Shown: positions 1,367 to 63,922 of the stretch, piece after piece
Layout of the letters: every line of letters begins with the position of its first letter
How positions within the stretch are numbered: position 1 is the stretch's first letter
Assembly (NCBI RefSeq): GCF_004010195.1
Contig: NC_057749.1
Location: 16,496,524 to 16,560,523, forward strand
Source: Chiloscyllium plagiosum
Taxonomy: Eukaryota
DNA: 64,000 nucleotides
Reading direction: 5' to 3'
Program-made: the position numbers and the translations under genes
The notes under the pieces: model-generated
What the model was told of the DNA's origin: nothing
Seen by the model: only the letters and a program-made list of their open reading frames with translations
Database searches by the model: none

Positions 1367-1530
1367 GTGAGGGCTGCAGATGCTGGAGCTTCGAATCAAG
1401 AGTGCGGTGCTGGAAAAGCACAGCAGGTCAGGCAGCATCCAAGGAGCAGGAGAATCGACATTTCTGGCTTAAGCCCTTCATTCCTGATGAGGGACTTATG
1501 CCCAAAACATCGATACCTGTTCCTTGGACA
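1367..1530. mobile_element. Penelope-like pLTR repeat (family A), inverted pair, degenerate hammerhead
   Basis: gctggaaaagcacagcaggtcaggcagcatcc..., followed by its reverse complement; CTGATGA at 1484. Confidence 0.7.
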
Positions 1531-1669
1531 CTTTTTGACTGTAAAAATCCAGGAGCTAATTAGCAGTAATTAATTGCACATGGGGTAAGTGTTCAAAGGG
1601 ACCATTTTCATGGCTGCAGTGGAATATTGGCTTTTATATAACACAGCACTGACCCAGGTGCTGCGTGGT

Positions 1670-1720
1670 GCTGGGTAACACTGTGGTTAGCACTGCTGCC
1701 TCACAGCACCAGGGACCCAG
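1670..1720 (+). mobile_element. tRNA-derived SINE (HE1-like), 5' part, split by the LTR element
   Basis: gtggttagcactgctgcctcacagcaccagggacccag joins gttcaattcc (B box) at 8575. Confidence 0.8.
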
Positions 1721-2648
1721 TGTCACAAAGCCAGTTCCTTTTTTCTAAAAGCTGTCCCTTTTCTCAGGGATACTATGCCCTTGGTTTTTTTCAGAGGGGT
1801 TGTAAATCACTCCCGGTGCTGATTAGACTGGTTTGGTACAGAGATTAAAGGGTATTGAGAGGCCTGTTTGTTTATATATTTGGGGTGGCATGGTGATTCA
1901 GTGGTTAACACTGCTGCCTTACAATGCCAGACACCTGAGTTCGATTCCAGCCTCGGATGACAGTGTGAAGTTTGCATATTCTTCCCGTGTCTGCGTGGGT
2001 TACTTCCCACAGTGACAAAGATGTGCAGGTCAGGTGGATTGGCTATGCTAAATTGCCCATAGTGTTAGGTGCATTAGTCAGAAGGAAATGGGTCTGGGTA
2101 GGTTACTCTTCAGAGGGATTGGTGTGGACCTGTTGGGCTGAAGGGCCTGTTTCCACACTGTAGGGAATCTAAAAAGATGAGCCTTCAGGCCAAAGTGGTC
2201 ACATTTTAGAAGAGACCTGTATAATGAAAGGGGTGCGGTCAGCTCTCTAGCTGAGCAGTTCAGTCCAGAACTAGTTGCAAGTTCAACAGTGAGCTGTGTA
2301 GAAATTCTCTCTCTCTTTCTGCTCTCCTAACTTCAACCTGTAAGCATCTGTTCCATTTTTAACTGTGTTTTAAGGGGGGTTTGTTTATTGGGACTGTTGT
2401 GTATATTTGGAACAGCATAATTAAGTCTAGTTTGGATAGATAGAACTCTGTAGGGGTTCTTTATCCTGGTCTTTGTTTTCATTGTGAAATTTTGTGAATA
2501 CATTTCTGTCTGTTTTAAAACCTAGTAGTCAACCTAGCTAGCTTTCTCCAGGTAATTTTCACTGTACACTTACCAAAACAAATTGCAAAGTTATGGTTTG
2601 GGTTGCCTGCTCAAGAATGTTTTGAGTGGTCTGGCCTGGTCCATAACA
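1721..2648 (+). repeat. 5' LTR (~638 bp plus a ~290 bp SINE insertion)
   Basis: Colinear with 7936-8570 except for 1881-2170. Confidence 0.92.
1881..2170 (+). mobile_element. tRNA-derived SINE (HE1-like) inserted in the 5' LTR
   Basis: A/B boxes (tggtgattcagtgg, gagttcgattcc), CR1-like tail; absent from the 3' LTR. Confidence 0.85.
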
Positions 2649-2651
2649 GAT

Positions 2652-5700: not shown

Positions 5701-7761
5701 GTAATTTTGCAATTGGGGATAAGGTAACAGTAACAGGTAAACCTTTAAAAGCAAGGTTTAATTGACCTTATCAAATCGAAAGGAAATTGAGTGAGGTGGA
5801 CTACTTGGTAAGGACTCCAGACAAGAAGAAATCTCACAGAGTGTGTCATGTGAATATGCTCAAAAGGTATTTTGATTGGGAAGGAAAGCAAGAGGAGAAG
5901 GTGTTAATGATTACAGCACAGAAGGAAGAACCAAGCTCAGAGGATTCTGAATTGGACATTCCTCAAATCAAATTGGACAATGTGGAAGTTGTCAAAAATT
6001 GGGATAACTTATTGAGTTACCTTCCACAAGAAAATCAAAATGACATGAAAGAATTATTACTATCACATGGGGAGATATGCGGAAATAAACTGGGAAGTAT
6101 GAACCTAATTGTGCATGACGTAGGTATAGGAGATGCTGTTCCAATTAAACAACCTCCTTATAGGCATAACCCTGTAAAGTTGGCACAGGTTCAGAAGGAG
6201 ATAGAGTGCATGCTCCAAGATGGCATAATTGAAGTGAGTTAAAGTGACAGGAGCTCACCTATAGACATAGTGCCAAAGCCAGATGGTACCCAACAGTTAT
6301 ATGTGGACTATCGCAAAGTCAACGCTGTTACAAAGATTTAAGCATATCCAATTCCATGGTTGGAGGACTGTGTTGAAAAAGTGGAATAAGCAACTTACAT
6401 TTCTAAGTTGGACTTGTGCAGAGGCTACTGGCAAGTATCTCTGTCAGAGAGCAAAGGCAATTTCAGCTTTCGTAAAGCCAAATGGACTATGTCAGTTCAA
6501 AGTCATGCCATTTGGTATGAAAAACATTCCAGCCACATTTCAGAGACTGACTAATAAGGTCATTTCTGGATTACCCAACTGTGAGGTACATATTGATGAC
6601 CTGGTGATTTTTAGTCACACATGGAAGGAACATTTACAGCATTTATCGGACTCTTCGATCAACTTCGGAAGGCAGGCTTGGTGATAAACCTAGCTACAAA
6701 TGAATTTGCCAAAGCCCAAGTCACCTTCCTGGGCCATGTTATTGGACACGGAAGAATGCCCTCATGGGATGCAAAAATGAAAGTAATTGGGGAATTCCCC
6801 GCACCGTCTACAAAAAAAAGCAGTATTACGGTTCCTGGGGTTGAGTGGATTTTACTGAAAGTTTGACTTTAGCAGTGTGGCTGCTCCACTCACCGAATTG
6901 TTAAAAAAGGGCAAAAAATTTCAGTGGACAGTGGACTGTCAAAAGACAGTCTAAAAACTATGTTAACCACTTCCCCAGTATTAACCACACCAGATTACAC
7001 AAAGCCTTTCAAAGTGGCTATCGATATGGGTGTCAGTGCTGTGCTCCTGCAGGAGGATGATGAGAGAATAGGAAGACACCTCAGGCATTTTTCCAGGAAG
7101 TTGACATTCATCAACAGAAATATTCAATGGTGGGGAAAGAGACTTTAAGCTTGGTGTTGGCATTACAGCATTTCAGTGTTTATATAATCAGCAATGCATC
7201 TGAAAAAATGAGGAAACTAGTTCGAGGGTTGGGACTGAGACAGGGTGGGGGGAGGGGAAATGAGGAAACTCCCCCCACCCTGTCTCAGTCCCAACCCTCG
7301 AACTCAGCACCACCTTCCTAACCTGCAATCTTCTTCCTGACCTCTCCGCCCCCACCCCCACTCCGACCTATCACCCTCACCTTATCACCCTCACCTTAAC
7401 CTCCTTCCAACAGTCGCATTTCCAACGCCCCACCCCCAAGTCCCTCCTCCCTACCTTTTATCTTAGCCTGCTTGGCACACCCTCCTCATTCCTGAAGAAG
7501 GGCTCATGCCCGAAACATCGATTCTCCTGTTCCTTGGATGCTGCCTGACTTGCTGCGCTTTTCCAGCAACACATTTTCAGCAATGCATCTGAGACAATCG
7601 TAAACACTGATCATAACCCATTGACATTTGTGGAAGAATTTAAGGATGAAAATGCCAGACTGTTTAGATGGAGCTTGTTGTTGCAGCCGTTCACTTTGAT
7701 AATTGTGCAGGTGACAGGTCGCGGAAACGTGATTGCTGATGCGTTATCGAGACTTGAATGA
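2749..7761 (+). pseudogene. Decayed gag-pol: SCAN-like capsid (~3230-3710), Zn knuckle (~3890), protease (~4155), integrase (~4850-5500), RT (~6140-6850), RNase H (~7000-7761)
   Basis: CFNCNKVGH; LRDTGSSQ; HELPLGG..FYWPGL..C..CQ; IDCIGPLP; SDQGSNF; VDYRKVN; KLDLCRGYWQ; MPFGMKN; HIDDLVIFS; TDHNPL; NVIADALSR. Confidence 0.9.
7204..7580 (+). mobile_element. Penelope-like pLTR fragment with 5' inversion, inserted in RNase H
   Basis: 16-bp TSD tcagcaatgcatctga (7188-7203 / 7577-7592); hairpin at ~7219-7305; hammerhead core at 7488-7524. Confidence 0.8.
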
Positions 7762-8570: not shown

Positions 8571-8574
8571 CCAC

Positions 8575-14069: not shown

Positions 14070-14595
14070 AGGAGCAAATTACGGCCGATGCTGGAATCTG
14101 TACTGAAAACAAAAAGTGCTGGAAATCACAGTGGGTCAGGCAACATCCATCAGCTCTGATGATGAGTCACCTAGACTCAAAACGTTAGCTTGCTCTCAGT
14201 CTTTTTTCACAGGGCTGGAGAATCAAGGATTAGAGGTCATCAGGTTAAGGATAGAGGGGAAAGAATAAAAGGGAACCTGAGGGGCAACTTTTTTACACAG
14301 AGTGTGGTATACATATGGAATGAGCTGCCAGGAGAAGTGGTTGAGGTGGGTGCATTAACAACATTTAAAAGGAATTTGGACAAATACACGGATAGGAAAG
14401 GTTTAGAAGAATATGGGCCAAGTGCAGGGAAATGGGATTACCGTGGATGGACATTTTGGTTTGCAAGGACCATTTGGGCCAAAGGGCCTGTCTCTGCTGT
14501 AGGATGTGATGACTGTATGACTCTATGACTGTATGACTCTCTCTCCATGGATGCTGCCTGACCCACTATGATCTCCAGCATATTTTGTTTTCAGT
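14070..14595. mobile_element. Penelope-like inverted repeat with hammerhead-like core (14152-14190), interrupted by a CR1 3' end (~14198-14540)
   Basis: agct CTGATGA tgagtc accta gactc AAAA cg TT agct; arms ~14090-14145 / ~14550-14595. Confidence 0.65.
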
Positions 14596-14756: not shown

Positions 14757-14992
14757 TCCGAAAGAACTGCAGATGCTGGAAATCTGAAACAAAAACAGAA
14801 ATTGTTGGAAAAGCTCAGCAGGTCTGACAACATATATGGAGAGAAATCAAAAGTTAATGTTTCAGGTCCAGTGATCCTTCTTCAGAACCAGTTCTATTCT
14901 TCAGTTCTACCGTTATAAAACGTTAACTCTGATTTCTCTCCATAAATGCTGCCAGACTTGCTGAGATTTTCCAGCAACTTCTGCTTTTGTTA
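14757..14992. mobile_element. Penelope-like pLTR repeat (family B), inverted pair
   Basis: Minus-strand core gtt CTGAAGA..GAAA ca TT aac at 14853-14888; inverted arms. Confidence 0.65.
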
Positions 14993-16000
14993 CACCATTA
15001 ATTCCTGTCCAAAGCCTCACCTCTTCAGTTTTTGCTTGTACCTGCACGTTGCTGCTATCCCTTACTTGGCCAGACGCTCCCATTGACCAAAGTCATACAG
15101 ACAAAGAGAAGGAGAGGAGTAAAGAGACACAAAGAGAGAGAGGGATGAAAATAGAATTCTGAGAAAGGTGGGGATGGGGTGTAAAAAAAGGGGAAAGATC
15201 AGGAAGGTGGAGGAACACCTGAAGGAGATTGAGGAAGAGAGAAAAAACATTAAAAAGATAATTTTTTCCCTTCCAACCTAGTAAAATAGCCTTTCAATAA
15301 TCACAGTTTCAGTTCACATGAAAAAAATGGATGTTGGGAGAGAAGGAGAAGGCTAATGTCCAGAGAATGTACTCAAGTAAATAGTATAACTTGGGGAAAA
15401 TGGGGGTGAAAGGGAATCATGTGTTTTACTATTGATGCAGAGTCTGTAGAGCTTTCTATTACATTCCAGACCAATGATAATTTTAGTTTACATCAGAATT
15501 TTCCAAAAATGGGGGTTGGGAACCCAAGTGAGGTTTCAAATTGAAACATTGGTGTCCTGAACTCTGAGGTAGCAATGGGTGCTATGGGGGGCTCTGACCG
15601 AGTTATAACTTGTGTGTTTTACTAATCTGGCCCCCTTTTTAAATCAGCCTTTGCCCTCATTGCCTCCTGACCCCACTGCCTCAGTTCTTACTGAGGAGAT
15701 CACAACAGTTCTCAAGCCTTGATTGTCTGGCCACAGTCATAACAGGTTTGAAAAGCAGTGGTATATCACTTGTTGATCTCTCACGTTATTCCTTATAGTC
15801 TGTATTTGTTGAGGTGAGGGACCAATACATCATTAGACAAGGGCATGTAGATATAATTCACTTTAAAGTCTTTTGATAAATCTTTATTTTTAATATTTAT
15901 GTTAATATAAATTATTGTTTCAACTGTAAATTCTTACTTTTCTAATAGAAACTACTTGTGTAAATATTCTAGATATAGACTCCACTCCTTCCCCTCCTTC

Positions 16001-17399: not shown

Positions 17400-18010
17400 C
17401 TGCAAGTCTGGCAACGTCTGTGGAGAGAGATATAGAGTTAACGTTTCAGGTCCAGTGATGCTTCTTCAGAACTGCTGTAGCTAGGTTAAGATTGGTACAT
17501 AAGACTGGGAGTGGGGATTTGGGCTGAGAGAAGGGAGTAAGTGATAGGTGGAGATACAGCCCAGAGAGAGAGAGGAGACAGCTGTTGGACAAAGGGCGGG
17601 TAATGGTGAGCCTGGGAGATAGAAAAGCTGCTAATGGGGACTATCAGTGAGGGAACATGAGTTAGCTGCAATGAAGGCAGCCCGTGTGATGACATGGCCA
17701 GGGATGTACGAGTGAGTAAACGTCAGGGTCTGAAATTATTGACTCCAAAGCAGAAATTGCTGGAAAAGATCAGCAGATCTGGCAGCCTCTGTGGAGAGAA
17801 ATCAAAGTTATTCACAGATGCTGCCAGACCTGAATCTGCTTTGGTTCGGTTTTCGCTGTGGTTTACATCATTTTCGGTTCTTTCTGTGTTTATCTAAAAT
17901 GATTGAACTCAATATTGAGCCCCGAAGGTTGTAGGAGTCCCCAAGTGGATAATAAAATGCTGTTCTTCCAGATTGCACTGAGCCTCAGTAAGCCCAAGAA
18001 TGAAACATTG
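17400..18010 (-). mobile_element. Penelope-like element 3' end (GIY-YIG C-terminus + pLTR, family B)
   Basis: Minus frame EAQCNLEEQHFIIHLGT resembles PLE endonuclease C-termini; hammerhead core at 17436-17473. Confidence 0.65.
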
Positions 18011-19474
18011 GCCAGGGAATATGTTCATTCCAACCCTGTCTCTTTGATGGGCCCCTTCACACTGGTAAATGCATGGATACATTGCACCCATTCAAGGAGA
18101 CAGATTTCACGCAATGAAAGAATTGAGACAGCCTCTACCTAAGCCTCACATTTTCTTATCCTTCAGCTACAGTGGGAATTCAACTTCAATAAAAGTCAAA
18201 TCCACCATTCTGTAGTTCCACTTCTCTCCATCAATTTCACAAGCATCAGTCACTCCCTTCCCTTCCAGCCCAGATGATCCCTTTCTTCAGTCACTCAATA
18301 TCACACTTTCCAGCAAATGAGAGGTGCCTAAGTGCAAATAAATCAGGAATGGGGACCCTGGGTGATATTTCTGATTCATAACTCAGATGTCTTGTCATTG
18401 ATCTATCCTGTACCCGCCCAATGGTTTGTTGCTACCTGTGTTTGGATCAGCAAATAGAGAAATCTTGCTAAAACTATACAAGGCAGAAGTTGGACTGTTT
18501 TGAAAGGCTTTGGGCCTCTTATCTAGGGAAAGATAGACTGGCATTGGAAGCAGTCCAGAGAAGATTCTGAGGAAGGGTTATTGGACCAGAAACGTTAATT
18601 CCGATTTCTCTTCCAGACCTGCTGAGCTTTTCTGCAATTTCTTTTCTTGTTTCTGATTTACAGCAACTGCAGTCATTTGGTTTTTATTCTGACTAAAACG
18701 TTGTCTATTTCAGCTTTGTATATACTTAACAACCCAGCCATCAACAGTCCTGTGCTGTAAACAATTCCACAAATTGCCTACCTGCTGAAAGAAAATGTGA
18801 AGAGCAGTGATCTCCTGGTTCAATGGCCCTCCCACAATGAGCACCAACAAAAGGCTGCTTGGTTATTCATCACATTGAGTTGTCACCAATGAAGAATGGG
18901 TGCTGTTTGTTTTTACAAATAATTACACTTCAGAAAGAAATTCATTATTAAAGAAAATACAATCAGTATTTATATCATGCTTTCCACCAATACCATTCAT
19001 CTAAAATCACTCCACAGCCAATGGTTGAGTAACTGTGACTTAGAAAACATGGCAATTTGAACACCTTAGATTCCCACAAATAACAAGGAATAATGATGTA
19101 GATCCTGGATTATTCCTCTACTCTTCAAAATAGTATGATGGGATCTCTGACATTTACTTGAGGGGACAGAAAAGATCGCTGTTTAATGTCTCTTTCGAAA
19201 GACAGACAACATAGCAACACTTCCTCAGTGCAAATGCAGAGTTGAAAATGTGTTGCTGGAAAAGCGCAGCAGGTCAGGCAGCAATCAAGGAACAGGAGAA
19301 TCGACGTTTCGGGCATAAGCCCTTCTAATGCAAAGTGTCAGGATAGACTGTGATATTCAAGTCTTGGTGTGAAACTTGAATCAAAAGTGCTACCAAGCTG
19401 ACTCTGATATGATAAAACATGTTGAATTGTTAAACAATGTGGCAGGTCATTGAAATGAAAACCTGACACCTGAA

Positions 19475-20320: not shown

Positions 20321-20954
20321 CTTTAAAGTTGTGGAAGGGTTCAATAAAGCAAAGGTACAGATATTTCCACTTGTTTTCCTTTTTGTTGTACTTGGTCACA
20401 TCACTAATAGGTCAAAAAATTTAAGAGGAATGTTTTTTAACAGAGGAAGTGGTGAGAATGTGAGACTTTCTGTCACATGGAATGGTTAAAGCAGTTACTG
20501 TGGAAGGAAATGAAATACATACAGAAAGGAATAGAGAGATAAGGGACTGTTGAGGGAGGTAGTAATGTGTGGACAGAATCTTTTGTTGTGTATTAACACT
20601 GGCACGAATTGTTTGGACTGAATAGTTCACTTACATATGTAGATTCTATGTAACACACACAAGTACTCTTTAGAAACCCACATCCTTAATTTTCCTGAGA
20701 GAATTTCAGCTCATTATTAAATGTCTGCCTAATCCATTGCAATGACCCAATTTATAAGTTAAAATGGTTCACAGTATAGCTGCTGCTTTACAACAGAGAA
20801 ATTAGATTTATGTTATGTATTTCTTTTAACTGCAGGTTCAAACAAAATATCACAGATGACTACCTCCTTTATATTGTTAGTTATTTTGAGCAAATGTTGG
20901 ATCATTTGCTAGGATTTGAGAAGTTGTATGGGCTACTGTTCCTACTTCTTATGT

Positions 20955-21143
20955 TAAACAAATCACACATCAGGTTATAGTCCAACAGGTTTATTTGGAA
21001 ACACTAGCTTTCAAAGGTTTCTTGAGGAAGAAGCAGTGCTTCGAAAGCTAGTGTTTCCAAATAAAACTGTTGGACTATAACCTGACGTTGTGTGATTTTT
21101 AACTTTGTCCATCCAGTTCAACACGGTCACCTCCAAGTCATGG
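20955..21143. mobile_element. Palindromic Penelope-like repeat (family C)
   Basis: 13-bp TSD ctacttcttatgt (20942-20954 / 21144-21156); long inverted arms; core ...GAGGA agaagc agt gcttc GAAA gc TA gtg. Confidence 0.7.
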
Positions 21144-37600: not shown

Positions 37601-40600
37601 TTGACAACAGTGGCTTTAAAACTGTCCCCTTCTGCACTGTGCAGCTATTCAGAACCTGTTGCAGACAGGGGTCCAAGTAAATGTCAAAATGTAACAGGTC
37701 AACCTAAGTAGTGAAAAGTCTGCTGTGTTGAGGTCATGGTGCTTTGCTAAACCAATCCATGAAACAAAATTGCAAGTATTTGACAATTAAAAAATTACCA
37801 CAAAAGATGCCTGACTGAAAACTGATGTGTTTAACTTTGTTCTTCAGTGAAAGGAACTTGCCACCCTAACTGAAGTGTAGCGCATAAGATTTTAGGGATC
37901 TTGTAAAACACTTACTGACATGATCGAACAAGCTAAGTCATCAAATCAACACAAGATAGACATCAAGTACTGGATTACACCTCAACATAACACATCAAAA
38001 TAATACATAAACAGGTACACATTATATTGCACACTAGGCAGCAGAGTGGCAAACAGATTTCAATCTGGAGATTCAATCCTAATTCCCTTCCTAAGTGCAT
38101 TGTGGGTCAACCCACAGCAGGTGGACAATAGCAGTTCAAGAAATCATCTCACCACCACCTTCAAAGGCAACTAGGGACAGACAATAAATGCTGGCCAGCC
38201 AATGACATCCACATCCCACAAATAAATAAAACAAAATGGTCAAAGGTATTGGAGAATAAATGGGAGGTTTGAGTGGGGAAGAAGAGAGAAGCCTTGAAGT
38301 GTACAACCACAGGTCTCTGAAAATGGTAGAACAGGTAGATAAGGTGGTAAAGGCAGCACATGGGATACTTTCCTTCATTGGGCAAGGTAATGAAGATAAC
38401 AGCAGGGATGTAATGGGGTATTATTTTGATTCTGGTTAGGTCATGGCTGGAGTTTTGTGGACAGTTCTGATTGGTCAGAAAGGTCAGAATTGTTTGAGAG
38501 CAGAAAGAGTACAGAGGCGATTTACAAGAATGTTGCCAGGGTTTGAAAATTGCAGCTAAGATTGGAAAAGCTACCACTGTTTTCCTTACAACAGATGCTC
38601 AAGGATTGACTTGATTGAGATGCATAAAATAATGGGAGACTTCGATAGAATGGAGGGGGAAAAACCTGTTTCCCCCTAATGGGGGAGTAAATTACCAGGG
38701 GCCACAGAAAACTTATGATTGACAGAAAAATCTGATGGAACATGAGGTTAAGTTTTTTCAATCAGAAGGTGGTGAGTGTCTGCATTTCACTGACCAGCAC
38801 AGTTGAAACGGAAACCCTCAACTCATTTAAAAGGAATTTGAATCTGCATCTGAGAGCTTCTCGCCGGAAAGGCGAATGACCAGATGCTAGAAAATGTGAT
38901 TAGAACAGGCAGTAAGGTTTCTTCAGCTGCCATGGACATAATGGGTTGTATGGCCGCCTTCTGTACTGTAACTATTCTATGTTGCCACCATGGTTAAATT
39001 ATAGAGTGGGGGATGGGAGAAAATTAACAATAAAACATGAAAAGCCTAGATATAAATGACAGTGCAAAGTAAACTGTAATGTCACACATTATTACCTCAA
39101 GACTGAGCATTAACATACACATGATATTGATTACTGTGCAAGTTTTTTTAAATCACTTGTTTATTGCAAAGGTTATGGGTCAGAATGCTTCACTTGCTGA
39201 ATTAACCTCACCCCTGCCTCCGAAATCCTCAGACCCACATACTCCCTCCTTTATCCTCTTAAGGAAGATTCATCACTCCAGCTCCCCCTTCAACTCATTC
39301 TCTCTCGTCAGGCACACTACAGATTTTTAAACACCACAGTTGACGTTACCTAAACGGTTTCTTGATTTTATCTTTAATTTTTATATGACGTGACAGTGCA
39401 GTTCAACAGCAACCCTTTCACCAGTCAACAAACATTCAAAGTGTACTAAAGGATATTAGTACATAACTTAAGCAGGAGGTGCCGTTCTTCAGTTGAAATG
39501 TTAAAGCCCAATTCATGAGTGAGATCAAAAGATGCCAGTGCATTGTTAAAGAGGAAATAGTTCTCCCTGTGTTCTGGCCAACATTCCTCCATCAGCCAAT
39601 CCCACATAAAACACACTAACCAGCTATTTATATTGCTTGCTGCTAATGGAACATTGAGCAAATCGATATTCATGTTTCCCTACAAAATAAAGTGACCGTA
39701 ATATGAGAGTAGAATAATGCACGATTTCCTAACTTAGTGCAATATTACATCTGCAACTTTTAAATTAAAGTACATACCAGAATACAAGGACATGGCAGAG
39801 ATTGGAGAGGTGTTTAGTGTACGGTGCGTTTCATTTCACCATGCTGCTGTCTTCAGAACACAGGAAGGAATGTCTTTGGAAATCAATCAATGGCTATTTT
39901 ATCTAGAGCAAGAACTATCATTCATGTCTGCTTAGACAGTTCCATCTAAAGGCTATGGGGGGCACCCAATACCTGACAGCCATGATCACGCTGCTTTTTA
40001 AATGTTTACAAACAAAAAGACTTGCATTCCTGTAGCACCTCATGCCATCAAGAAAATCCTAAGGCACCTTAGCGCTTCTTTAAACATGGCATCTTTAAAA
40101 TAGTCACCGCTGTACTGTAGCTGAGGAGAAAGTGAGGTCTGCAGATGCTGGAGATCAGAGATGGAAATGTGTTGCTGGAAAAGCGCAGTAGGTCAGGCAG
40201 CATCTAGGGAACAGGAGAATCGACGCTTCGGGCATCAGCCCTTCCTCAGGCCATTCTCCTGTTCCCTAGATGCTGCCTGACCTGCTGCGCTTTTCCAGCA
40301 ACACATTTCCATCGCTGTACTGTAGCTGCCAAACTGTGCACAGCATGCTCTTACAAGCAGTGACATGATAACGGCGAGGTAACTTGTTTGAGCTATGGGG
40401 AGGTGAGTGATAAATACTGTTCAGGACATCAGCAAAAACCCCCGTATTTTCTTCAACATTGACATCTGACGAAGGGGCTGACCAGATGTCTGTTTAATGC
40501 TTCATCCAAAGGATGGCATCTCTAAAAGTGCAGCATGCCCTCAATACTGCACTGTAAGCATGTCAGGTTTCCATGGCAAGGTCCTTTGAATGGGGCTCGC

Positions 40601-43600: not shown

Positions 43601-46600
43601 CTACTCTTCTGCAAGTACTGCCACGGGTTTTTTTTAAACGATTCATCCAAAAAGAAAGAGTAGTTCTGAGCTAAAGGTTTCTTGGATAATGTAATGTAAT
43701 TTTCTTCCTGTGCTGAAATGCATCAGCCTTAATAACATGCTCAAATCTGGCAGGGAGGTTGAAAACTCCTGACTTTTACTCATGAGTGACAGAAGCTGCA
43801 AGAGAATTGCATTGAGAAGTCCTTTGCCCCATTACCAATGCAGAATCCCTTGAATCTGAGGTTGGAAGGGTGGAATCAATAGCTGTATGTCTATGCCCAA
43901 ATAGACAACACAAAGATTTCACATCTCAGACATTATACTTTACTGAAATTCTTCCGTCAATCCAGAATTGGATTCAAATTCATGTGGACCAAAATTCAGT
44001 TCAGTACCTGATATATGTCAGTTACCATATCTGTTGGGGATTTCCACACAGCGCTGACCTGCGTGGGAAGAATGTTTCCATCGATTAATGTAACCCTGAC
44101 CTGGGGAGAGGTAGCAAGAACAGAAATAACACAGGGGCGTTCTTGCTCAACAGGATTAAATACAACCACATATCTGCAAAAAAAAAAGACAAGGAAGATA
44201 CATCATGAACACTATTTTAACATACAAGAACAGGAGATCTCATTGGGTGAATTACTGTAAAAATTGATATACCTGGGAAGAGACTCCAGCTTTATCACCA
44301 CCTTCTCTGGTAATGTATCATGATTTTGCCGTTTATCATCCTGAAATTAACATTGAAACAATATAATTCATTAACAAGCTAAGTCTAATAATCGCTAACT
44401 ATGACTAAATAAATACATGAAATATCAGGCTATCCAATAACTAGAAATGTCCAAAACCAGACATTTTCTCTCAGCACAGAGCATGAAGAACAGAGAGAAA
44501 AATTATAAACCCTTTCCAATACATGTTTTGTGAGCAATTACATAAATCACATCTTTGAAATCACTATTACCCACTGCCCAACAGTTTTGATGCCTTCATA
44601 TTGAGCCCTGGATATTCTGTACATGATTAAATTAAATAAATTTGTCTCAGAGTATCCTGTGGGTCAAACCAATTGCCCAGGAGAGATTGTCGACCTCAGA
44701 CAAAAGACGGAACAATCCAGAAGTTGAAAATTATTTGCTTGCACTCATCACCTGCCTGCTTTCATCTGATCTGGCCAGTAACGATATTCAAGTGCCACAC
44801 CTGCCTCTTGCACATTGTAATAAACCCAGACTCCAGCCCAGGTAGCCTCTGAACAGAAGTCAGTTTAGCAGTGTGCACAAAATTACTATGCTGTTTTGAA
44901 GAATCAGATCATGTAAAAGCATTGAAGCATTTCAAATTCTTACGACTAATCTGCATTGAATTCTAAGGCACTGCAATTAGCCTAAGAATGGTAATATATT
45001 GGCTAGAGGACAGACCCCTGCAACTCAGTTCTGAGCTTAAAAATATGTTCATCTTAGTTTTGGTTTTAAGAGAGAAAATTATACTTCATAAAGATCAAAA
45101 GATAACTTACCATGTGCAGCAGAAGTGATGACTGGTCATATTTGTAGTCTCTTTTGTCCCGAAGTATTAAGAAGTGAGCTGCATTAATTATCACTCGTTT
45201 CAAGTTCATAAGGGAGTGAAACAATCTGAAAAAGGGGGTGGAAAAAAGAATGTCTGGTTTACACCACATCCATTACAGCTTCTGAAAATTTACATTCATA
45301 TGATGTCCCCCAGTCCCTAAAAACAGAGTATTTATTATAAAGATCTATCATTTTATCTTAGCATTCCTGACTGTGGACTAAAACAGGAAAAAAAGGAAGT
45401 TCAAAATTAAGTGCCATGAAAAGAATTGCTGCACTTGAAAATAAGCTACTGAAACACATCAAGAACATAAGAAATAGGAGAAGTAGTCCATCAAGTCTAT
45501 TCCGCCATTCAATCAACATGGATGATCTGGTAACCCTCAAATCCACTTTCCAGCCTTTTCCCTATACCTTTTGATTCTCTGATTAAAAATATGTCTTTGT
45601 CTTGAATATACTTAATGACCTAACTGTGACAGTAAAGTTGTGACACTTGACAGTGGTGTTTACACTGACTGCTGCTTTGTTGAGTGGTGGTGAGGAGAGA
45701 AAATATGTTTGGAAACGGCACTCTACTGCCATGAGCATAGAGCAACATTTTCCAGCTATAAGTAGCTGACTGGTTTCTGCAAATGCAACAATGCTTGGAC
45801 GCGAAAGGTCATCAGCCTGATAACAAATTTATGGGCAGCTGAACACCTTGCGGTTATGAATGAAACACAGAAGTGTTTTGTGCACACGCAAATCTTGCTC
45901 TCTCCGCACAGTAAAGGTACCTGAAGCATGAAGGAATCCAATTATAAGCATAAGGAACATCATGAACTGTGTGGATCAACGCTACTGAATCGATTCCCCC
46001 CCAATTTTGTCCCCCCGGCAAGTGAGCAACACCAATTTTTCTGTTGGTCTGTATGAGATATTAGTGTTTTGAAAAGGGAGTTAGAGTTTGAACTAGAACT
46101 ATATTTTGATAGCTCACAGCTGTTAACTTGTTATTTCAATTTACTTATATGTATTACATAGAAATTCTTGTTAAGTACAGAAACCAGGTCAGTGTCTCTT
46201 GTTAACTTGATTCCAACAGATAAATCAGAGTTTTGGGCTTGAGAATCAGCGCACGTTCTTAATTAGGTTGTAACCTTACACAATGCCCCATCACAGTCTC
46301 AGAAAGCAAGTTTTGAGAAGATTTGTAGCTCAGATGGAGGTTCTGGATGCACAGAATACCGTGCAATGTCTGTAACAAACAATACATTAGACAAACAGGC
46401 AGAAAACTAGCCACAAAATAACATGACCCTCTCTCACTAGTATCCTTACGTACAGATGAGGAAGGACACCACTTCGACTGGGACAACACATCCACCCAAG
46501 GACAAGCAAAACAGAAACACGCACGAGAATTCCTAGAAGCATGGCATTCCAACCGGAACTCTAACAACAAAAACACATTGACTTGGATCGCATTTACCAC

Positions 46601-49600
46601 CCTCTGAGAAAAAGAACAGGAAATGACATCACTACCCCAAAGAAAGGCAAACATATAAAATAGAAAGCAGGAATCATCAGCAGTGCTTTGTCCAGAGGCT
46701 CACTGAAGATGTTACCTAGTATAGTGACGAAATGTCGAAAACGAACCTTCCAGCTCAGTGAGCAAATCAATATATACACACAGTCTCAGAAAACCTAGCA
46801 TTTATACAAAATTCTATCTCAGCTCATAAATGTCATGTGATCCCAAGGGTTACAATCACAGAGGAGAAAGTGAGGACTGCAGATGCTAGAGATCAGAGCC
46901 GAAAATGTGTTGCTGGAAAAGCGCAGCAGGTCAGGCAGCATCCAAGGAGCAGGAGAATCAACGTTTCGGGCATAAGCCCTTCTTCAGGAATCCCCATGCC
47001 TGACCTGCTGCGCTTTTCCAGCAACACATTTTCAGTTACAATTACAGATAAAGGAAAGGCCATTTAAGACTGAGGAGGAGAGATTTCTTCAGCCAGATAG
47101 CGGTGAGCCTGTGGAATTCTCAGCCACAGAGTGGTTGAGGCCACTGAATGCTCTCAAGGAGAGAGATAGAGTTCTTCGGGCTAAAGGGGTCAAAGAGGAC
47201 AAGGATGGAGGGCCAGGAACAGAATACCGATTTAGATAACTAGCCACGATCTCACAGAATGGCAGAGCAGGCTCAAAGGACTGAATGCTCCTATTCCTGC
47301 TCCTACATCTCTCCAGGCTTTCCATTTTAGCATGAGAAGCAGGAACATTAGCTTTGTTTACTTGGCGGCATTAAGCTGCTAAAACTGAAGTTCAGTGTTC
47401 TTCATAAATCACAATAACTTTGGTATTGTTTGGCACAGAAACATTCATATGAAAATTAAAAGTAAAAGATTTGTTTTAAATTTGGAGGTCCTCAACCTTC
47501 AGCATTTGCAAACCTGTCTTGCTCACTCCATACTAGACAAGCAGTGACCTAGTTTATATGGATTTCTTGGTTAAGTTAAAGTTATACTAAAAGATAATTA
47601 TTTGGCAAACATAAAATGGAAGTTTATTTCATTTCACAGAGGTGCACAGTGACACGTACCGGATTCCATAGTCAACAACCACCACTTCTTTTGAGGTGCC
47701 AGTAATGGCATCATGGTGCTGGAACAAGCCTATGTTCCGGCGAGCTTCTGTTAGTGAGCTATAATCAGAAACTGGGTATTTACTGTCTGCACCAAAGCGG
47801 CGAGCGTGATTTAAGGCCAAGCTGTAGAGGATCTCAGCTGCTCTGGAATAAAATTAAAGGCTTTTTATTTAAGGCTCACGAATTATTTAATAAAAATGCC
47901 AGTGCACATTTATTGACACAGAATTTTATAGAAGGAAGACATTCAGCTCAATGTAATTCAGCCAGTTCAGAGCTTAATCCCAATCCCTTATACTCGCCCC
48001 ATTTAGCTTAAACATCACCCTTTGTAATACATTTATCCATTTTCTTATTTGAAAGTTACTCTGCTTCCACCATTCTAAAAGTCCTCTGCTTTTTTTTAAA
48101 AAAGCATCTCCTTTTGTTCTATAGAAAGGAGCCCAAGTTTCCATACCTTCTTCTGAACTAAAATCTCCCACCGATAAAGCTTCCCTGCATCCTTTCAATG
48201 AGCTGATGTAGTTCCTAAAGTTCAGAGCCCAAATTCCTATTGTTTGTTTAGCAAAACCTATCTTATTCTCCGTATTTCACTAACACTATCTATCACTCCA
48301 GGTCCACCCATCTCTGTCCTCTTAGATTCTTGTCTCTCCCTCCAAGACTCAATTATTAATTAGTAATATCTTTTAACACTCTTTTTACTCTTTTCTACCA
48401 CATTAGAAAAAAGAACTTTAAATACAACTGCTTACAAACATAGCCCCTTACCTGAGGTGTGATTCCAGGACTCTGTCTAGATTCTTATAAAAGGGTCGGG
48501 AGGTAAAATATCCACTCCAATAATGGTCCTCACGGTCAGCATAGGTGAAGAAGTCTCCACTGAGGATAGGGTAGGATGGAGGCTTGCTACCTGGGCTAAC
48601 ACCGTATTTTTTATAGACAGCATCAAAGTACTCAGATAGCGTTCCAAACTGCACCTGGTAAATAAATGGACATTCAGAACAAAGCAAAGACAGACACCTA
48701 CATATTGGAGACACAGTTTCTCTAAAAATTCCCAACCCCCAAGACATTTCCATCTATCAACTTAGGTGCATTTTATCACAGATACACTTTCAACACCTTT
48801 CCCAGCAAACTTCATTTGCATGAGAATCTGACATTCAAATTTGGAAGACATCGCAGCTAAGCCAAATTTGCTCAAGCTTCCAGGTATGCCCAGAAACCTC
48901 AGAACCTCTCCTTGCCTAAGCTGCTACAATCAACTGTTTCCTCTCGGTTGCCCTGCCTGGCGAGCTAGATAGCTCAGTAGATGGCTCATCAAAGCAGAGA
49001 TCTGCCTGCTCTGTACAACTGGTAAACTGCTGGAATCCAGACAGCTAGTCAAAGTCTGTGAGAAGATTTGTAGCTTGGGTGCTCGTGGTTGTGGTTCTGT
49101 TCACCGAGCTGGGAATTTGTGTTGCAGACGTTTCGTCCCCTGTCTAGGTGACATCCTCAGTGCTTGGGAGCCTCCTGTGAAGCGCTTCTGTGATCTTTCC
49201 TCCAGCATTTGTAGTGGTTTGAATCTGCCGCTTCCGGTTGTCAGTTCCAGTGGTCGGTATATTGGGTCCAGGTCGATGTGCTTATTGATTGAATCTATGG
49301 ATGAGTGCCATACCTCTAGGAATTCCCACTTATTATCTCCCACTTATTAGGGCAAATTTGCTTTTGGATCAATACCGGAAAAAGTCCAAGTTGTTCTCTA
49401 TTCGGCTTGTCCTATTATAGTAGTGTTGTCCAGTCGAATTCATGTTGCTTGTCATCTGCGTGTGGCTACTAAGGATATCTGGTCGTGTCGTTTCGTGGCT
49501 AGTTGGTGTTCAGCTATCCTTAGTAGCCACACACGCAGATGACAAGCAACATGAATTCGACTGGGACAACACTACTATTATAGGACAAGCCAAACAGAGA

Positions 49601-52600
49601 ACAGCCAGGGAATTCCTAGAGGCATGGCACTCATCCACAGATTCAATCAATAAACACATCAACCTGGACCCAATATACCGAGCACTGCAACGGACAGCTG
49701 GAACTGACAACCGGAAGCGACAGATTCAAACCACTACAAATGCCGGAGGAAAGATCACAGAAGCGCTTCACAGGAGGCTCCCAAGCACTGGAGGATGTCA
49801 CCTAGACAGGGGACGAAACGTCTGCAACACAAATTCCTAGCTCAGCGAACAGATCCAGACAGCTATATTTCTCCCTTGACAGAGACACTTACTTGCACAT
49901 GAAGCTCAGGGTGAGAGTTCATGTAGTCAAAAAGTTTTGCATAATTCTGGAATTGCTGGTCCCACTCCAGAGCATTGTCATAACGAAAGTCATCTCCAAC
50001 TGGAATCAGGACCACTTTGCTCTTGAACAACTTGGACTTTTTCCGGTATTGATCCAAAAGCAAATTTGCCCTAATAAGTGGGAGATAAGAATCTGCACTG
50101 AGAATGTAACAAACACATGTGGAAGGAAGACAAGAACAAGCGTTAGCATGCTTTCTTATCAGTAATAAGAAAATGATACTGTCAATTCACTGAACATTTC
50201 CTCTTAGGAAAGTAAAATTACTTCCAGAAAGCAGCACCATGGGATATGAAAATGAGGAGTAAGCAACCTCGTTAAACAAATCAAAATGAGATGTTATAAA
50301 TACATCTGCACAGACTTCTTTCAACCTTTCCCATTATAAATTGCCCAGTTCATTGTTACTACATATATAAATGTCACATGGTAAATATTTCCCACTAGTG
50401 GAGGTGCTATAGTGTGACCAGCATCAACAGCAAGTCATCAAAGTTGGACAAATTTAGACAGATTATTTCCAAGGTGACAGTGTATGTGGAAATTTATAAT
50501 GGAAGCAGATATAGATAAAATCCAGGACATTAAAACAGCAACTAAATAATACTTGCACAACTTGTTCTAATTATGTATGCCCTCTAACAAATTTATTTTC
50601 ACTGAAATGCAGAGAAGTTGCAATACAGAATTTGCCATTTAACTCAACCAGCCATGTCAACCTTTACCCTTCTCGTGGGAACATTGCTATAATCATATTT
50701 CAATACATTCTTACCACGATGTATTTTCTTTCATCCACCTAACCAATACCATCTTTAAGACTGATTTTTGCCTGAATCACCAACTGAATTTCACAGGTTT
50801 GTAACTCAAGAAACTTCAAGCGCATCTTCCTATTTCCAGTGCTCCCTTATCCCAGAACCCTCAATCACTTATAATAATCTGCTATCTATCCGACCCCACT
50901 TTCTTTTAAAAGCACTTCAATCATGTTGCCCCATAATCTGCTATGTTCAGGCCATTTTTTTTTTAATTCCATTTTTTTTTATATACTATGTTTAAACCTT
51001 CAACTGCCTATATATTAAAAAAAAGGAGTCGCGACAGCATGCCTGGAGATGTTTGAACTGAACAACTAGTGCAGTCATGGCGAGATTGCTTAACACCCAG
51101 TACATCAGCCAACCAAAAAGAGAAAATACAAGACCACAATGAGTAAATGTTACCTGGGGCAGAAAGATTCCAGATCTGATGTTTCTACGTGGAATTAGCT
51201 GATTTGAACTAGATAGCAGAATCCAGCTCATTAGTAATCTGTTACCTTTTGTTTTTACCTGTCTCTGGGCCCCATCTCCACATAATCTATTCACTGGCAC
51301 AACCCCCCTATCATCAGTATAAAAATGATCTTTTTCAGATATTCAGTTCTGACGAAGGGTCACTTAAAACATCTTCTCTGTAGATGCTACCATACCTGCT
51401 GAATTTTTTCATCACTTTTTGTAGCGGAATTCTACAACTGGTATAAAAAAAACTTGGTGGATTTAAATCAAGAAGAATAATCAATAACCAAGTTGCAATT
51501 CTACTTAAGGTTTTTAAATCAATGGTGGCAAATAGGAAAACTGCACAAGAAAGACACCCTAAGCCAACTATTCTAGCACAACGATCAAGAATTCAGGCAG
51601 TCCATCACAACATCCAACTGGCTCTTCAATTATTGCAGGGAATTTCACTTCCAATATCATCCTTTCCTGCCTCCAACATACCTGTTTCACAAGTTGATCG
51701 CATGAAGAACTTCCGACAACAGTAGGGTATGAACCAACAGCATGGAAATTCAACAGAAGATGTGGAGATTTTCAAACAAAATAAATTTTGAACAAAAAAG
51801 CAGTGCTCTCGTGATGACTGCACAAAACTGACCAAACAACCATTCAGTCCAGGATCTGGATTAGTGGTGCTGGAAGAGCACAGCAATTCAGGCAGCATCC
51901 GAGGACAGGCAAAATCGACGTTTCGGGCAAAAGCCCTTCATCAGGAATAAAGGCAGAGAGCCTGAAGCATGGAGAGATAAGCTAGAGGAGGGGGGGGGTG
52001 GGGAGAGAGTAGCATAGAGTACAATAGGTCAGTGGTTCTTGTAGAGAGAGGAGGAAAACTTCTTCAAGGCAGGCATCCTTGCAAGAGGATTCGCAGTAGG
52101 GTTAAAATCAACGAGGTAAAAACAATGACTGCAGATGCTGGAAACCAGATTCTGGATCAGTGGTGCTGGAAGAGCACAGCAATTCAGGCAGCATCCGAGG
52201 ACAGGCAAAATCGACGTTTCGGGCAAAAGCCCTCCATCAGGAATAAAGGCAGAGAGCCTGAAACATGGAGAGATAAGCTAGAGGAGGGGGGGGGGGGGGA
52301 GAGAGTAGCATAGATTTTACAGTTCCTGCGGTGGCAGGGGAAAGTGCCAGGATGGGAGGGTGGGTCGTAGGGGGGCGTGGACCTGTGCCAGGATGGGAGG
52401 GTGGGTCGTAGGGGGGCGTGGACCTGAACCATCAAACTCCAACCAATTATAGCCTCGTGAAAATGGATAGACTGGTGTTCATAGCTACAAGTCAAGTAAT
52501 GGCGAAAATACACATACCAGTTAATGCTGACTAGTTGGGATGAAGATTAAGCATTTCCCTCAAAAGATAAAATTAAAGCTTTATCCTATGAGTAACAAGA

Positions 52601-62943: not shown

Positions 62944-63330
62944 CCTGCGGGTGTCCCGGCTTCCCGCACTCCCGCCGCCGCCGCCTCCACCCCGCGGGCC
63001 CGGTCTCAACGGCCGCATACCAGCACCCAGCCTCGCAGCAGCATGGTTTCCCCCCCGCAAGCCCCAGAGGCTCCCCTACAGCTCGAGGCCAGGCCACCAG
63101 GCTGCTCCCTGTGTCACCGCGCCCGGGCTCAGGACAGACGCGGTCTCGAGGCCTGGAGACACGGACACCCCGTCACCTCAGCGACGCGACTTCTGTTGGG
63201 GCCGGCACCGAGACTGCGTACTAAGAACCCAGCCTCGCGCCCCTATCGGTTTGCAGGAGATGCTCTTTAACTGACAGGACTTGCATTTACCTAACGCCGC
63301 GCACCATCCCGGGCTATCTCGAAGGATAAG
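62490..63330 (-). promoter_or_regulatory. CpG island / promoter and 5'UTR of MAN2A2
   Basis: Only strongly GC- and CpG-rich segment in the window; spans the start codon. Confidence 0.8.
62812..62943 (-). CDS. MAN2A2: MAN2A2 coding exon 1 (cytoplasmic tail + type II TM anchor)
   Basis: ATG at 62943; MKLKKQ...GVSFPR; AGG|gtaag donor; 132 nt. Confidence 0.95.
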
Positions 63331-63692
63331 ACTGCTAATAGAAGTTTTTTTTTTCGATTATGTAATTATTATAGCAAACGAAATGGCCGATCTACGTACA
63401 GCGAATTTCACAACAATCAAACGAAAAATGACCAGGTAATTCTTTTAATATAGTTTCCTGGGAAGATAATTACGGGCAGGCCACAAGGAAGAACTCAGCA
63501 TTGATAACAGTACCATGGACAATCACAAGCAATTGGAGTCTCAGTTCCGTGTCTCAGCGAAAAGATGGCACTTCTGACAGTACAACACCCCCTTCGTAAC
63601 CTCATCGGGAATATTTTCTGTCCTTGTTTCTGACCTACGATCAGTCCGAACTGAGGAGCAGGAATCTTACCCACTGAACCTTGGTTAATGCC

Positions 63693-63922
63693 GGTCATGA
63701 TTTGGAGATGCCGGTGTTGGACGGGGGTGTACAAAGTTTTTGTAAAAAATCACACAATACCAGGTTATAGTCCAACTGGTTTAATTGGAAGCACTAGCTT
63801 TCACAGCACTGCTCCTTCGTCACGTCGTTATCACACTCCTGATGTAGGAACAGCACTCCGAAAGCTAGTGCTTCCAATTAAAACTGTTGAACTATAACCT
63901 GGTGTTGTGTGATTTTTACCTT
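63693..63922. mobile_element. Palindromic Penelope-like repeat (family C), second copy
   Basis: Same arms as 20955-21143; degenerate core CTGATGT...GAAAGCTAGTG. Confidence 0.7.

Follow-up and report, generated by a model that had tools for sequence, protein, structure and literature searches.

The window analysed here, 64,000 nucleotides of Chiloscyllium plagiosum contig NC_057749.1, is strewn with short repeats that carry a minimal hammerhead motif (Table 1). Twenty whole motif regions are recognisable, 17 by a covariance model (R1) and three decayed family C copies by blastn, in agreement with the roughly 20 intact or decayed cores of the original prediction. A hammerhead-like motif lies at each position it had named, and the copies sort into families A, B/B2, C and D, where it had counted at least four. 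Its family assignments and stem sequences also stand, with two refinements: the copy at 14152 belongs to a separate, rare sub-family, B2, whose pattern has only 2 genomic matches, and the family C stem GAAGC/GCUUC is a compensated variant of a main genomic form, GGAGC/GCUCC. Its interpretation of the repeats as derived from Penelope-like elements (PLEs) is supported by stem covariation, linkage to ORFs and a counted genomic load. We conclude that the hammerhead-bearing repeats of the window are very probably the 3'-terminal (pseudo-LTR) parts of several endonuclease-positive PLE lineages, each with a minimal type I hammerhead motif.

Table 1. Hammerhead-bearing repeats and associated PLE remnants in the window (L numbers are sampled loci; RT, reverse transcriptase; EN, endonuclease).
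Feature	Position (strand)	Details	Support
Family A head-to-head pair	1403..1540	left arm 1403-1479 (-), cut inside motif, within core	blastn; R1 E=0.0017 and 0.28 for the pair
Right arm of this pair	1478-1540 (+)	decayed hammerhead 1479-1516; G12 to A; CATC	
5'-truncated PLE 3' end	7283..7590 (+)	last codons of putative RT-EN ORF, then hammerhead, then 3' terminal region; 91.6% identity over 299 nt to L031 ORF tail plus hammerhead	tblastn
Family A hammerhead	7487-7524 (+)	helix III palindrome spoiled, CATC in its place	R1 E=1.9e-10
Family B2 head-to-head pair	14078..14197	hammerhead 14151-14191 (+); G12 to A	blastn; R1 E=7.5e-9
Family B/B2 head-to-head pair	14766..14994	hammerhead 14851-14890 (-); CpG decay weakening helix II	blastn; R1 E=3.5e-8
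Family B hammerhead	17435..17474 (-)	helix II decayed	blastn; R1 E=4.8e-7
Family B hammerhead	18562..18601 (+)	decayed	blastn; R1 E=8.3e-7
Family A copy	19240..19331 (-)	cut inside motif, 5' end within core	blastn; R1 E=1.3e-4
Family C head-to-head pair	20953..21141	left arm 20953-21012 (-), cut inside motif, begins at GAAA	blastn; sub-threshold miRNA-model hairpin match
Right arm of this pair	21023-21141 (+)	hammerhead with C3 to U; helix II GAAGC/GCUUC	
Family A head-to-head pair	31218..31396	left hammerhead 31265-31302 (-), decayed, U4 to G	blastn; R1 E=2.9e-7
Right hammerhead of this pair	31311-31348 (+)	intact	R1 E=3.1e-12; strict descriptor
Solo family A unit, CTGT-loop sub-family	32662..32775 (+)		blastn; R1 E=2.1e-10
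Hammerhead of this unit	32667-32704 (+)	intact; helix I 4 bp; minimum-free-energy fold is the hammerhead secondary structure, -7.7 kcal/mol	strict descriptor
Family A copy	34348..34438 (+)	cut inside motif, within helix II	blastn; R1 partial E=0.044
Family A head-to-head pair	40152..40311	hammerhead 40217-40254 (-), A15.1 to G; right arm begins ~1 nt past predicted cleavage site	blastn; R1 E=1.6e-4
Family D2 copy	46347..46773 (+)	decayed GIY-YIG EN remnant 46347-46703, then hammerhead 46698-46741	R1 E=1.1e-6; remnant: tblastn 51% identity, E=2.9e-34, and blastn match to L017
Family A TTAT-loop unit	46862..47038 (-)	hammerhead 46955-46992, intact core, U17; unit borders 46862 and 46991 marked by loose ends of sequencing reads	blastn; R1 E=5.7e-12
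Short inverted arm of this unit	46997-47038 (+)		blastn
Family D1 head-to-head pair of 5'-truncated PLE copies	49040..49857		
D1 left arm	(-)	EN remnant 49520-49230; hammerhead 49122-49165, the commonest family form	tblastn E=1e-25; R1 E=1.7e-8
D1 right arm	(+)	EN remnant 49514-49708; hammerhead 49783-49827, 1-nt core insertion	tblastn E=4e-15; R1 E=1.6e-5
Direct (pLTR-like) pair of family A TTTT-loop copies	51830..52384 (-)	spacing 296 nt	blastn; tblastn
First hammerhead of direct pair	51912-51949 (-)	intact	R1 E=4.6e-12
Second hammerhead of direct pair	52208-52245 (-)	A9 to G	R1 E=8.7e-10
ORF remnant beside direct pair	52307-52384 (-)		
Family C head-to-head pair	63697..63924	both hammerheads decayed: left, C3 to G and spoiled helix II; right, A9 to U	blastn

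Model R1 was trained on 19 copies of families A, B, B2 and D, four of them from the window, where it gives 17 matches at E<=0.0017 plus one partial match at E=0.044. Built without family C, it recovers none of that family's copies at E<=0.01; these were counted by blastn with the family C unit, which recovers the three decayed copies that R1 misses (21023+, 63697-63829- and 63838+). Four copies are cut inside the motif. The loose pattern CTGANGA-N6-30-GAAA matches the window 18 times against 6.7 expected, a number that none of 100 shuffles reaches. The Rfam hammerhead models, which the original prediction had put forward as a check, share the catalytic core with the window copies; the curated models expect a helix III, and they match nothing in the window, whether the cut is the gathering score or E<=10. 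Only five to seven window copies have an intact core. A strict descriptor (full core, at least four contiguous helix II pairs, paired 15.2/16.2, U16.1 and H17) is passed by only five (31316+, 32672+, 46703+, 46987- and 51944-), and 49131- is identical to the commonest form of its family, D1, which has an A.G mismatch in helix II. Each remaining copy has at least one core or stem change, many of them CpG transitions. Most window copies are dead relics, and cleavage in vivo by any of these copies is putative.

Intact copies of every family carry the full core, C3 U4 G5 A6 N7 G8 A9 ... G12 A13 A14 A15.1 ... U16.1 H17. The families, whose helices are wholly different, all retain the 11 invariant core positions, obey the H17 rule and have a palindromic 15.1-16.1. 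In every family an extra base is left unpaired after A9, ahead of 10.1; it is A in A, B and C and U in D and B2, and a MAFFT alignment (A1, in which family C is shifted by one column) has A or U there in 47 of 47 rows. The length of helix II is 4-6 bp, and its closing pair, 10.1-11.1, is GC in 13, GU in 4 and AU in 2 copies of a 19-copy alignment, the A-U pairs being two rare variants. Helix III consists only of a palindrome, ACGU in A, B, B2 and D and AGCU in C, which could pair two copies and which CpG decay has ruined in many old ones. The bulge base, G10.1-C11.1 and the palindrome all lay outside the search patterns used. Helix I is open (type I) and weak, at 2-5 bp with 64-66% of cells paired.

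Helices I and II covary between families. The 19-copy alignment (A2) was hand-picked from the 47 rows, one per distinct stem variant, by dropping the eight family C rows and 20 near-duplicates or rows lacking their family's own upstream flank. In it 82.2% of cells are paired, compared with 63.7% in shuffles (none of 500 reaching the observed value), and both sides have changed in 39 cells, compared with 13.5. Helix II pairing in this set is partly by construction, the sequences having been pre-selected by descriptor. Helix I played no part in sequence selection; its three inner pairs show three to four standard pair types each, and four of its five pairs have changed on both sides. Among 44 model matches from loci not selected for hammerheads, 77% of cells are paired against 68.4% when shuffled (again 0 of 500), and slid-alignment controls pair at most 53.5% of cells. 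The covariation on which the original prediction was staked is therefore present in both sets. One repeat consensus that contained CUGANGA...GAAA by chance could have been amplified by its copy number, and the core is short, with loose matches also in non-repeat DNA (13148, 26441, 31776, 39829 and 42937). However, we regard a chance resemblance as hardly credible in the face of at least five sequence-unrelated families that have the full architecture, compensatory helix changes and the same position relative to the GIY-YIG ORF.

That position was established at 20 loci whose sole selection criterion was a GIY-YIG match above the Pfam cut-off: in 12 of them a same-strand motif lies 48-609 nt downstream of the ORF, the linkage to PLE ORFs whose absence would have spoken against the original prediction. 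Twelve of 22 model matches fall in the same-strand downstream zone, which makes up 12.4% of strand-bases (p=2.6e-6). Linkage to RT is drawn from fragments matched by tblastn and from relatives among collected proteins, and a single ORF with RT ahead of a C-terminal GIY-YIG endonuclease, as in endonuclease-positive PLEs, is putative for this genome. The 429-aa ORF of L031 has 36 longer relatives, with RVT_1 in 27, GIY-YIG in 11 and both in 9 according to precomputed Pfam lists, and tblastn detects RT or EN homology, upstream and on the same strand, in one or more loci of every family (L041 for B; L050 and L053 for C; L059, L060 and L029 for D; several for A), including RT-homologous fragments upstream at L001 and L059. 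A 1407-aa open frame (C9) was set aside as an artefact of an N stretch. In the window itself, Pfam finds no PLE domain in any of the 74 stop-to-stop ORFs of at least 90 aa because the EN remnants are too broken; tblastn with the locus ORF later found them, directly upstream of family D hammerheads (46347-46703 and 49230-49708). The family A copy at 7492 is preceded by a PLE ORF tail.

Across the 3.56 Gb genome, exact patterns for the four families match 104,915 times (A, 80,723; B, 938; C, 16,867; D, 6,387), with 0 matches for each of the four reversed-pattern controls, so the very large genomic ribozyme load that had been foreseen is borne out by count. An arbitrarily chosen 40-kb sample holds six model matches, which suggests ~0.5 million recognisable copies (Poisson ~0.2-1.2 million). 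Of the family A copies counted, 53% (80,723/153,184) have kept all three CpGs. Family D contains a young, nearly uniform sub-family, with about two-thirds of the first 100 matches listed identical over 34 nt in a hand count. In every insertion the motif lies only ~95-130 nt from a fixed 3' end, and because of this short distance it is retained in nearly all 5'-truncated copies, hence the huge copy number.

Target-site duplications (TSDs) of 7-15 bp flank eight of 27 sampled family A copies, and a 35-nt tail is present in 10 of these 27, absent in 16 and classed as other in one. L074 has the tail on one arm alone, and L085 has an inverted tail at its 5' side, within a 15-bp TSD. Pairs in the window are head-to-head in nine cases, tail-to-tail in one and direct in one; partial tandems occur at L033 and at window 51830-52384. 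The TSDs, the optional 35-nt tail and the head-to-head inverted arms fit published PLE anatomy, for which PMC8557442 gives 5' truncation, partial tandems, an inverted 5' copy and a 30-40 bp tail. By analogy with published PLE work, target-primed reverse transcription would begin at an internal RNA site downstream of the hammerhead, and priming on both target strands would produce head-to-head arms; PMC11167929 reports that RT starts internally, downstream of the hammerhead, and that both strands are cleaved and extended. Three sub-threshold matches to miRNA models (7219-7304, 20960-21096 and 14788-14992) are long hairpins of inverted PLE arms and not miRNA genes.

The short units, a hammerhead plus 95-130 nt, might instead be a SINE-like or retrozyme-like non-autonomous element and not mere truncation products. 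Their RNA would start at the hammerhead's first base, through the pseudo-LTR's own transcription start or through processing, and would be copied in trans by the PLE reverse transcriptase from the internal initiation site. Such an origin would suit 52 family A copies, of which a script assigned 22 to abutting an inverted arm, 20 to unrelated flank at the hammerhead 5' edge and 10 to continuing into the element body (~23, 14 and 15, respectively, after the rows were read); ~70% of the 52 end ~0-10 nt from the hammerhead's first base. TSDs flank units that begin 0-2 nt before CUGA (L003, L067, L068, L070, L079 and L081), and both arms stop at the hammerhead edge at L074 and L078 and in family C pairs 47-51 nt apart, as expected of a short template with a fixed 5' end. 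The edge sequence, TCATTCC or TTATTCC, is one that we take to resemble an initiator element. Animal retrozymes, moreover, are derived from PLE pseudo-LTRs according to a preprint (10.64898/2026.07.22.740005). However, copies extending into the ORF-bearing body occur in each sampled sub-family as well (L069, L071, L076, L077 and L080), and there is therefore no separate short-only lineage; family D1 has no such pile-up, and its head-to-head spacings range from 80 to 807 nt. Head-to-tail tandem arrays, which define retrozymes, are rare, with one direct pair in the window, and full-length RNA with RT starting at an upstream copy of the initiation site could give the same pattern. On balance we find a separate short template possible but doubtful. 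We are similarly tentative, and inclined to disbelief, about a larger proposal: that this genome holds the largest vertebrate hammerhead complement reported and that the bulk of it is a 'pseudo-LTR-only' parasite that propagates itself on the PLE machinery. The templates would then be short RNAs that begin at the hammerhead's first base and are copied from the internal RT start on both target strands, yielding TSD-flanked units of 95-130 nt and perfect head-to-head hairpins. [quoted passage not shown]

If the repeats are, as we prefer, the 3' ends of PLEs, published work on these elements suggests that a hammerhead lacking its own helix III would be active only through ACGU or AGCU pairing between two copies or through an element protein, and that a cut after H17 would trim the element RNA out of longer transcripts. 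Dimer cleavage is credited to Lunse et al. 2016 in a review (PMC6765202). When two 38-nt copies were cofolded, they swapped helix II and formed no textbook dimer, under an energy model that ignores tertiary structure. Seven truncated arms in the window have scattered start points, one of the seven near the predicted cleavage site; cut RNA is therefore not the usual template. Sequencing runs X1 and X15 are DNA-like, with even depth over unique sequence.

The hairpin and core could also be kept as a binding site or fold for an element protein, or as an ORF stop/start region, and not be self-cleaving in this animal. The X19 RNA reads, from a poly-A single-cell library ill suited to RNA ends, cover the repeats on both strands and nowhere show a pile-up of molecule ends, the cleavage site included, where truncation points are not concentrated either. 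The ORF stop lies inside the CUGA box at L017, L023 and window 46701-46703, the UGA of the box being the stop codon, so the core is partly coding-constrained. Published work leans the same way: the hammerhead of the Anolis element needs the protein, and insertion in vitro can do without it (PMC11167929), PLE clades without hammerheads proliferate well (PMC8557442), and minimal hammerheads cleave poorly in vitro (PMC4209133). However, the PLE hammerheads of fungi and plants cut well (PMC4209133), and 11 invariant core positions, the H17 rule and a palindrome that persist while the helices differ would be unexpected of a mere protein site. We therefore consider it unlikely that protein binding or coding constraint accounts for the motif.

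PLE hammerheads, known since 2014, show poor cutting in vitro, and insertion does without them in one reconstituted system. More than 100,000 intact-looking copies that match an exact pattern provide material for asking what the hammerhead does in vivo, at a density that suits sequencing of RNA ends (5'-OH and cyclic-phosphate), mapping of transcription starts at the hammerhead edge and tests of whether a dimer or the protein assists cutting. In annotation, these anonymous repeats deserve a PLE-derived label. Their frequent head-to-head pairs form 40-bp perfect hairpins, which can be mistaken for microRNA precursors and may trouble assemblies.

Among known systems, PAc, the Poseidon PLE of Anolis carolinensis (Frangieh et al. 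2024, PMC11167929), resembles the shark elements in having a hammerhead between successive ORF copies, an insertion 3' end ~100-200 nt downstream of the hammerhead and a tail signature. Its priming on both strands would explain the head-to-head arms seen here, and two of eight TSDs here end in ATT beside the insert, which recalls its ATT cleavage preference. The PAc ORF starts at helix II, whereas here an ATG occurs in loop II in some sub-families only; as an ORF start this ATG was rejected, its frame closing after 26 codons. The biochemistry is known for PAc, whereas the present case is argued from sequence.

Sm-alpha and Sj-alpha of schistosomes (PMC6765202), which are SINE-like, are likewise short, abundant and non-coding, with a hammerhead near the 5' end, but their hammerheads are canonical, with contacts between loops, and they carry a polymerase III-type promoter, whereas the shark repeats are PLE pieces with a minimal motif. 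Animal non-LTR retrozymes (PMC7229834 and Li et al. 2026, 10.64898/2026.07.22.740005) are, like these repeats, non-coding type I hammerhead repeats related to PLE pseudo-LTRs, and the preprint places such retrozymes in its one chondrichthyan genome. Retrozymes form head-to-tail arrays with a hammerhead per unit and give circular RNAs, whereas the shark copies are dispersed, TSD-flanked and mostly solo or head-to-head. In the window the sole direct pair, 51830-52250, encloses element body, all others being solo or head-to-head. Unlike retrozymes, ~29% of the copies here continue into an ORF-bearing element body.

The closest counterparts are the minimal hammerheads of metazoan PLEs (PMC4209133), which are also type I, with the full core, a bulge after A9, G10.1-C11.1, a palindromic helix III and a short helix I. 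They too fall into many consensus families per genome with compensatory changes, and they are mostly solo or in opposite-strand pairs ('dual min-HHRs ... in opposite strands'), few lying beside PLE ORFs. Helix II is 4-6 bp here and 7-8 bp in the schistosome families of that study. Cartilaginous fish are absent from its text and from the one supplement file searched. Our search of the literature on sharks and PLE hammerheads found no description, and the supplements of the 2026 preprint may name its chondrichthyan species and counts. In a rough comparison, made with differing descriptors, ~105,000 exact-pattern copies here stand against ~4,000 in coelacanth and ~9,000 in Xenopus (PMC4209133). 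The kind of motif was already known (Cervera and De la Pena 2014, PMC4209133); what is new here is the host group and the scale.

The window was predicted to hold roughly 20 hammerhead copies, and this estimate held: 20 whole hammerhead regions are present, together with four copies cut inside the motif, and every position singled out in the original prediction is hammerhead-like. The loose pattern CTGANGA-N6-30-GAAA matches the window 18 times against 6.7 expected, a count reached in 0 of 100 shuffles. R1, our covariance model for minimal type I hammerheads (trained on 19 copies from families A, B, B2 and D, four of them from the window), gave 17 matches at E<=0.0017, plus a partial one at E=0.044; three family C copies, all decayed, escaped it and were found by blastn with a family C unit. 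The Rfam hammerhead models, which had been proposed for detection, matched 0 copies in the window, even at E<=10. Only five window copies (31316+, 32672+, 46703+, 46987- and 51944-) pass a strict descriptor, and that at 49131- is identical to the commonest form of its own family; the remainder are altered in the core or the stems, often through CpG transitions. A 512-N run at 19642-20153, which is a gap or withheld sequence, has repeats on both sides.

All families share features that were absent from the search patterns: a single unpaired base 3' of A9, a 10.1-11.1 pair that is G-C (G-U after CpG decay, A-U in two compensated variants), a palindromic 15.1-16.1 region (ACGU or AGCU), a position 17 that is never G, and family-specific helix I pairs (AUUC/GAAU, AGUU/AACU, CCAC/GUGG, UCA/UGA, GCA/UGC, AGCU/AGCU). 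The asserted stem covariation is borne out in a hand-picked alignment of 19 representatives (A2), where 82.2% of cells are paired versus 63.7% in shuffles and 39 cells are changed on both sides versus 13.5, neither value being reached in 500 shuffles; slid registers are at most 47.6% paired. Helix II pairing in A2 is partly built in, because its rows were pre-selected by descriptor. Helix I was not used in that selection, and four of its five pairs have both-side changes. A second set comprises 44 R1 matches at 34 loci (26 GIY-YIG and eight family C loci), chosen without regard to the hammerheads of families A, B and D, which are those that R1 detects; its alignment, fitted to R1 and so biased towards R1's structure, is 77.0% paired versus 68.4% shuffled, with 36 versus 13.5 both-side changes. 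The minimum free energy fold of the 38-nt copy at 32667-32704 is exactly helix I plus helix II. Head-to-head transcripts, from inverted copies of one family joined at their 5' ends, are predicted at 46860-47040 and 20950-21100 to form near-perfect ~40 bp hairpins (-91 to -95 kcal/mol); in the former, the predicted fold keeps the hammerhead in its apical part, the long stem being an extended helix I.

The expected linkage to Penelope-like element (PLE) ORFs was found. A genome search with the Pfam GIY-YIG endonuclease model, in which 150 of 14,403 candidates were scored, yielded 47 matches and returned 20 loci, 12 of which have a same-strand R1 match 48-609 nt downstream of the domain. This zone, 12.4% of strand-bases, contains 12 of the 22 R1 matches at these loci (p=2.6e-6), and for every family tblastn found same-strand reverse transcriptase or endonuclease homology upstream at one or more loci. 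At L031, elsewhere in the genome, a 429-aa ORF ends 155 nt 5' of a family A hammerhead; among 36 longer relatives of this ORF, the reverse transcriptase domain RVT_1 is listed in 27, GIY-YIG in 11 and both in 9, a pairing that is the PLE domain order. In the window itself, the L031 ORF tail plus hammerhead recurs at 7283-7581 with 91.6% identity, and the D1 pair at 49040-49857 is made up of two 5'-truncated copies in inverted orientation, both with endonuclease remnants. A broken endonuclease frame at 46347-46703 (51% identity to the L017 ORF, E=2.9e-34) stops at the UGA (46701-46703) of the CUGA box of a D2 hammerhead. Endonuclease ORFs also stop inside this box at L017:1921-1923 and L023:1747-1749, that is, at two of the 12 GIY-YIG loci with a downstream hammerhead; in the others the frames have drifted. 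CUGAUGA at an ORF end gives two in-frame stops.

Other sequences accompany these copies. Four sites, 10829-10918, 14346-14438, 19561-19641 and 24834-24926, match the C-terminal 31 residues of the L032 ORF at 57-70% identity, and the end of this ORF is apparently overlapped by a different repeat. A decayed Ty3/gypsy-type pol (integrase C-terminal, RVT_1, RNase H-like) at 5766-7145, plus strand, has no kinship to the PLE copies. Minus-strand ORF fragments at 33791-50186 match the N-terminal, middle and C-terminal domains of glycosyl hydrolase family 38 (alpha-mannosidase), and the hammerhead repeats at 34-50 kb therefore lie in introns of this one host gene.

The supposition of a very large genomic load proved correct: in the 3.56-Gb assembly, the four main patterns (A, B, C and D) total 104,915 intact-core copies, and the reversed-pattern control was 0 for each exact pattern. 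In a 40-kb sample, taken at an arbitrary coordinate on each of eight contigs, R1 found 6 matches at E<=0.01, about 150 per Mb, beside which the window's 266 per Mb is unexceptional; extrapolated to the whole genome, this sample implies around 0.5 million recognisable copies, the Poisson range being wide.

Hammerhead repeat families, their helix II and their matches in the genome (exact-pattern, except where CpG transitions are permitted)
A	A-GGGC/GCCC	80,723
A, CpG transitions permitted at its three CpGs	A-GGGC/GCCC	153,184
B	A-GGGUC/GACCY	938
B2	U-GAGUC/GACUC	2
C	A-GGAGC/GCUCC, plus GAAGC/GCUUC variants	16,867
D	U-GUYACC/GGKGAC	6,387

Insertion anatomy was read from 27 family A copies chosen by hammerhead pattern only. 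Target-site duplications of 7-15 bp are clear in eight, and a 35-nt extra tail ends 10 copies, is absent from 16, and one is cut elsewhere. L074 has the tail on one arm only, and at L085 it is inverted, on the 5' side, within the target-site duplication. Pairs of one family in the window are head-to-head in nine cases versus one tail-to-tail and one direct, and genomic match lists contain many further head-to-head pairs. Most copies of families A and C stop at the hammerhead 5' edge, as do both arms of some head-to-head pairs; family D1 did not show this pattern. A script sorted 52 family A copies into 22 that abut an inverted arm, 20 whose flank at the hammerhead 5' edge is unrelated sequence, and 10 that continue into the element body (about 23, 14 and 15 when read by eye). 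In families A and C, such endings would be accounted for by a short template RNA that starts with the hammerhead. At 7219-7304, the right arm of a perfect GC-rich inverted repeat (~36 bp per arm; 56 bits, sub-threshold, with a miRNA model) seems to form the start of a 5'-truncated PLE copy at 7283-7590, and so the repeat is probably a further head-to-head junction.

One raw-read run, from a poly-A single-cell library, showed no RNA end pile-up; its reads fall on both strands of the repeats and derive for the most part from other copies. Truncated arms in the window show no preference for the predicted cleavage site, where one of seven starts. Published PLE-type hammerheads have weak dimer activity, and in the available text of PMC11167929 the hammerhead of the Anolis element depends on protein for its activity and is not needed for insertion in vitro. 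On the most cautious view, active source elements retain a hammerhead under selection, self-cutting here being putative, while the genomic copies are mostly inert relics, as are roughly three quarters of the window's own.

In runs X2-X14, labelled as three other organisms, 13-23% of sampled words of 46300-52400 are present; the words found there presumably stem from the repeats, in which case related species would have these hammerhead families too. The minimal PLE hammerhead is an already known kind (PMC4209133). Our literature search for PLE hammerheads in cartilaginous fishes found no description save one 2026 preprint (10.64898/2026.07.22.740005), whose available text reports retrozymes in tandem arrangement from one chondrichthyan genome. 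Copy number in the present genome exceeds the printed coelacanth and Xenopus counts (PMC4209133), which used different descriptors, by one to two orders of magnitude. The tails, target-site duplications, truncations and pairs correspond to PLE insertions as described in the accessible part of PMC8557442. Target-site duplications at L003 and L079 end in ATT (L067: AAT) directly beside the insert 5' end, recalling, in too few cases, the reported ATT cleavage preference of the Anolis PLE endonuclease. For the Anolis element, the available text of PMC11167929 has reverse transcription beginning at an internal RNA site 3' of the hammerhead, with both target strands extended, and the insertion anatomy seen here is consistent with the biochemistry given there.
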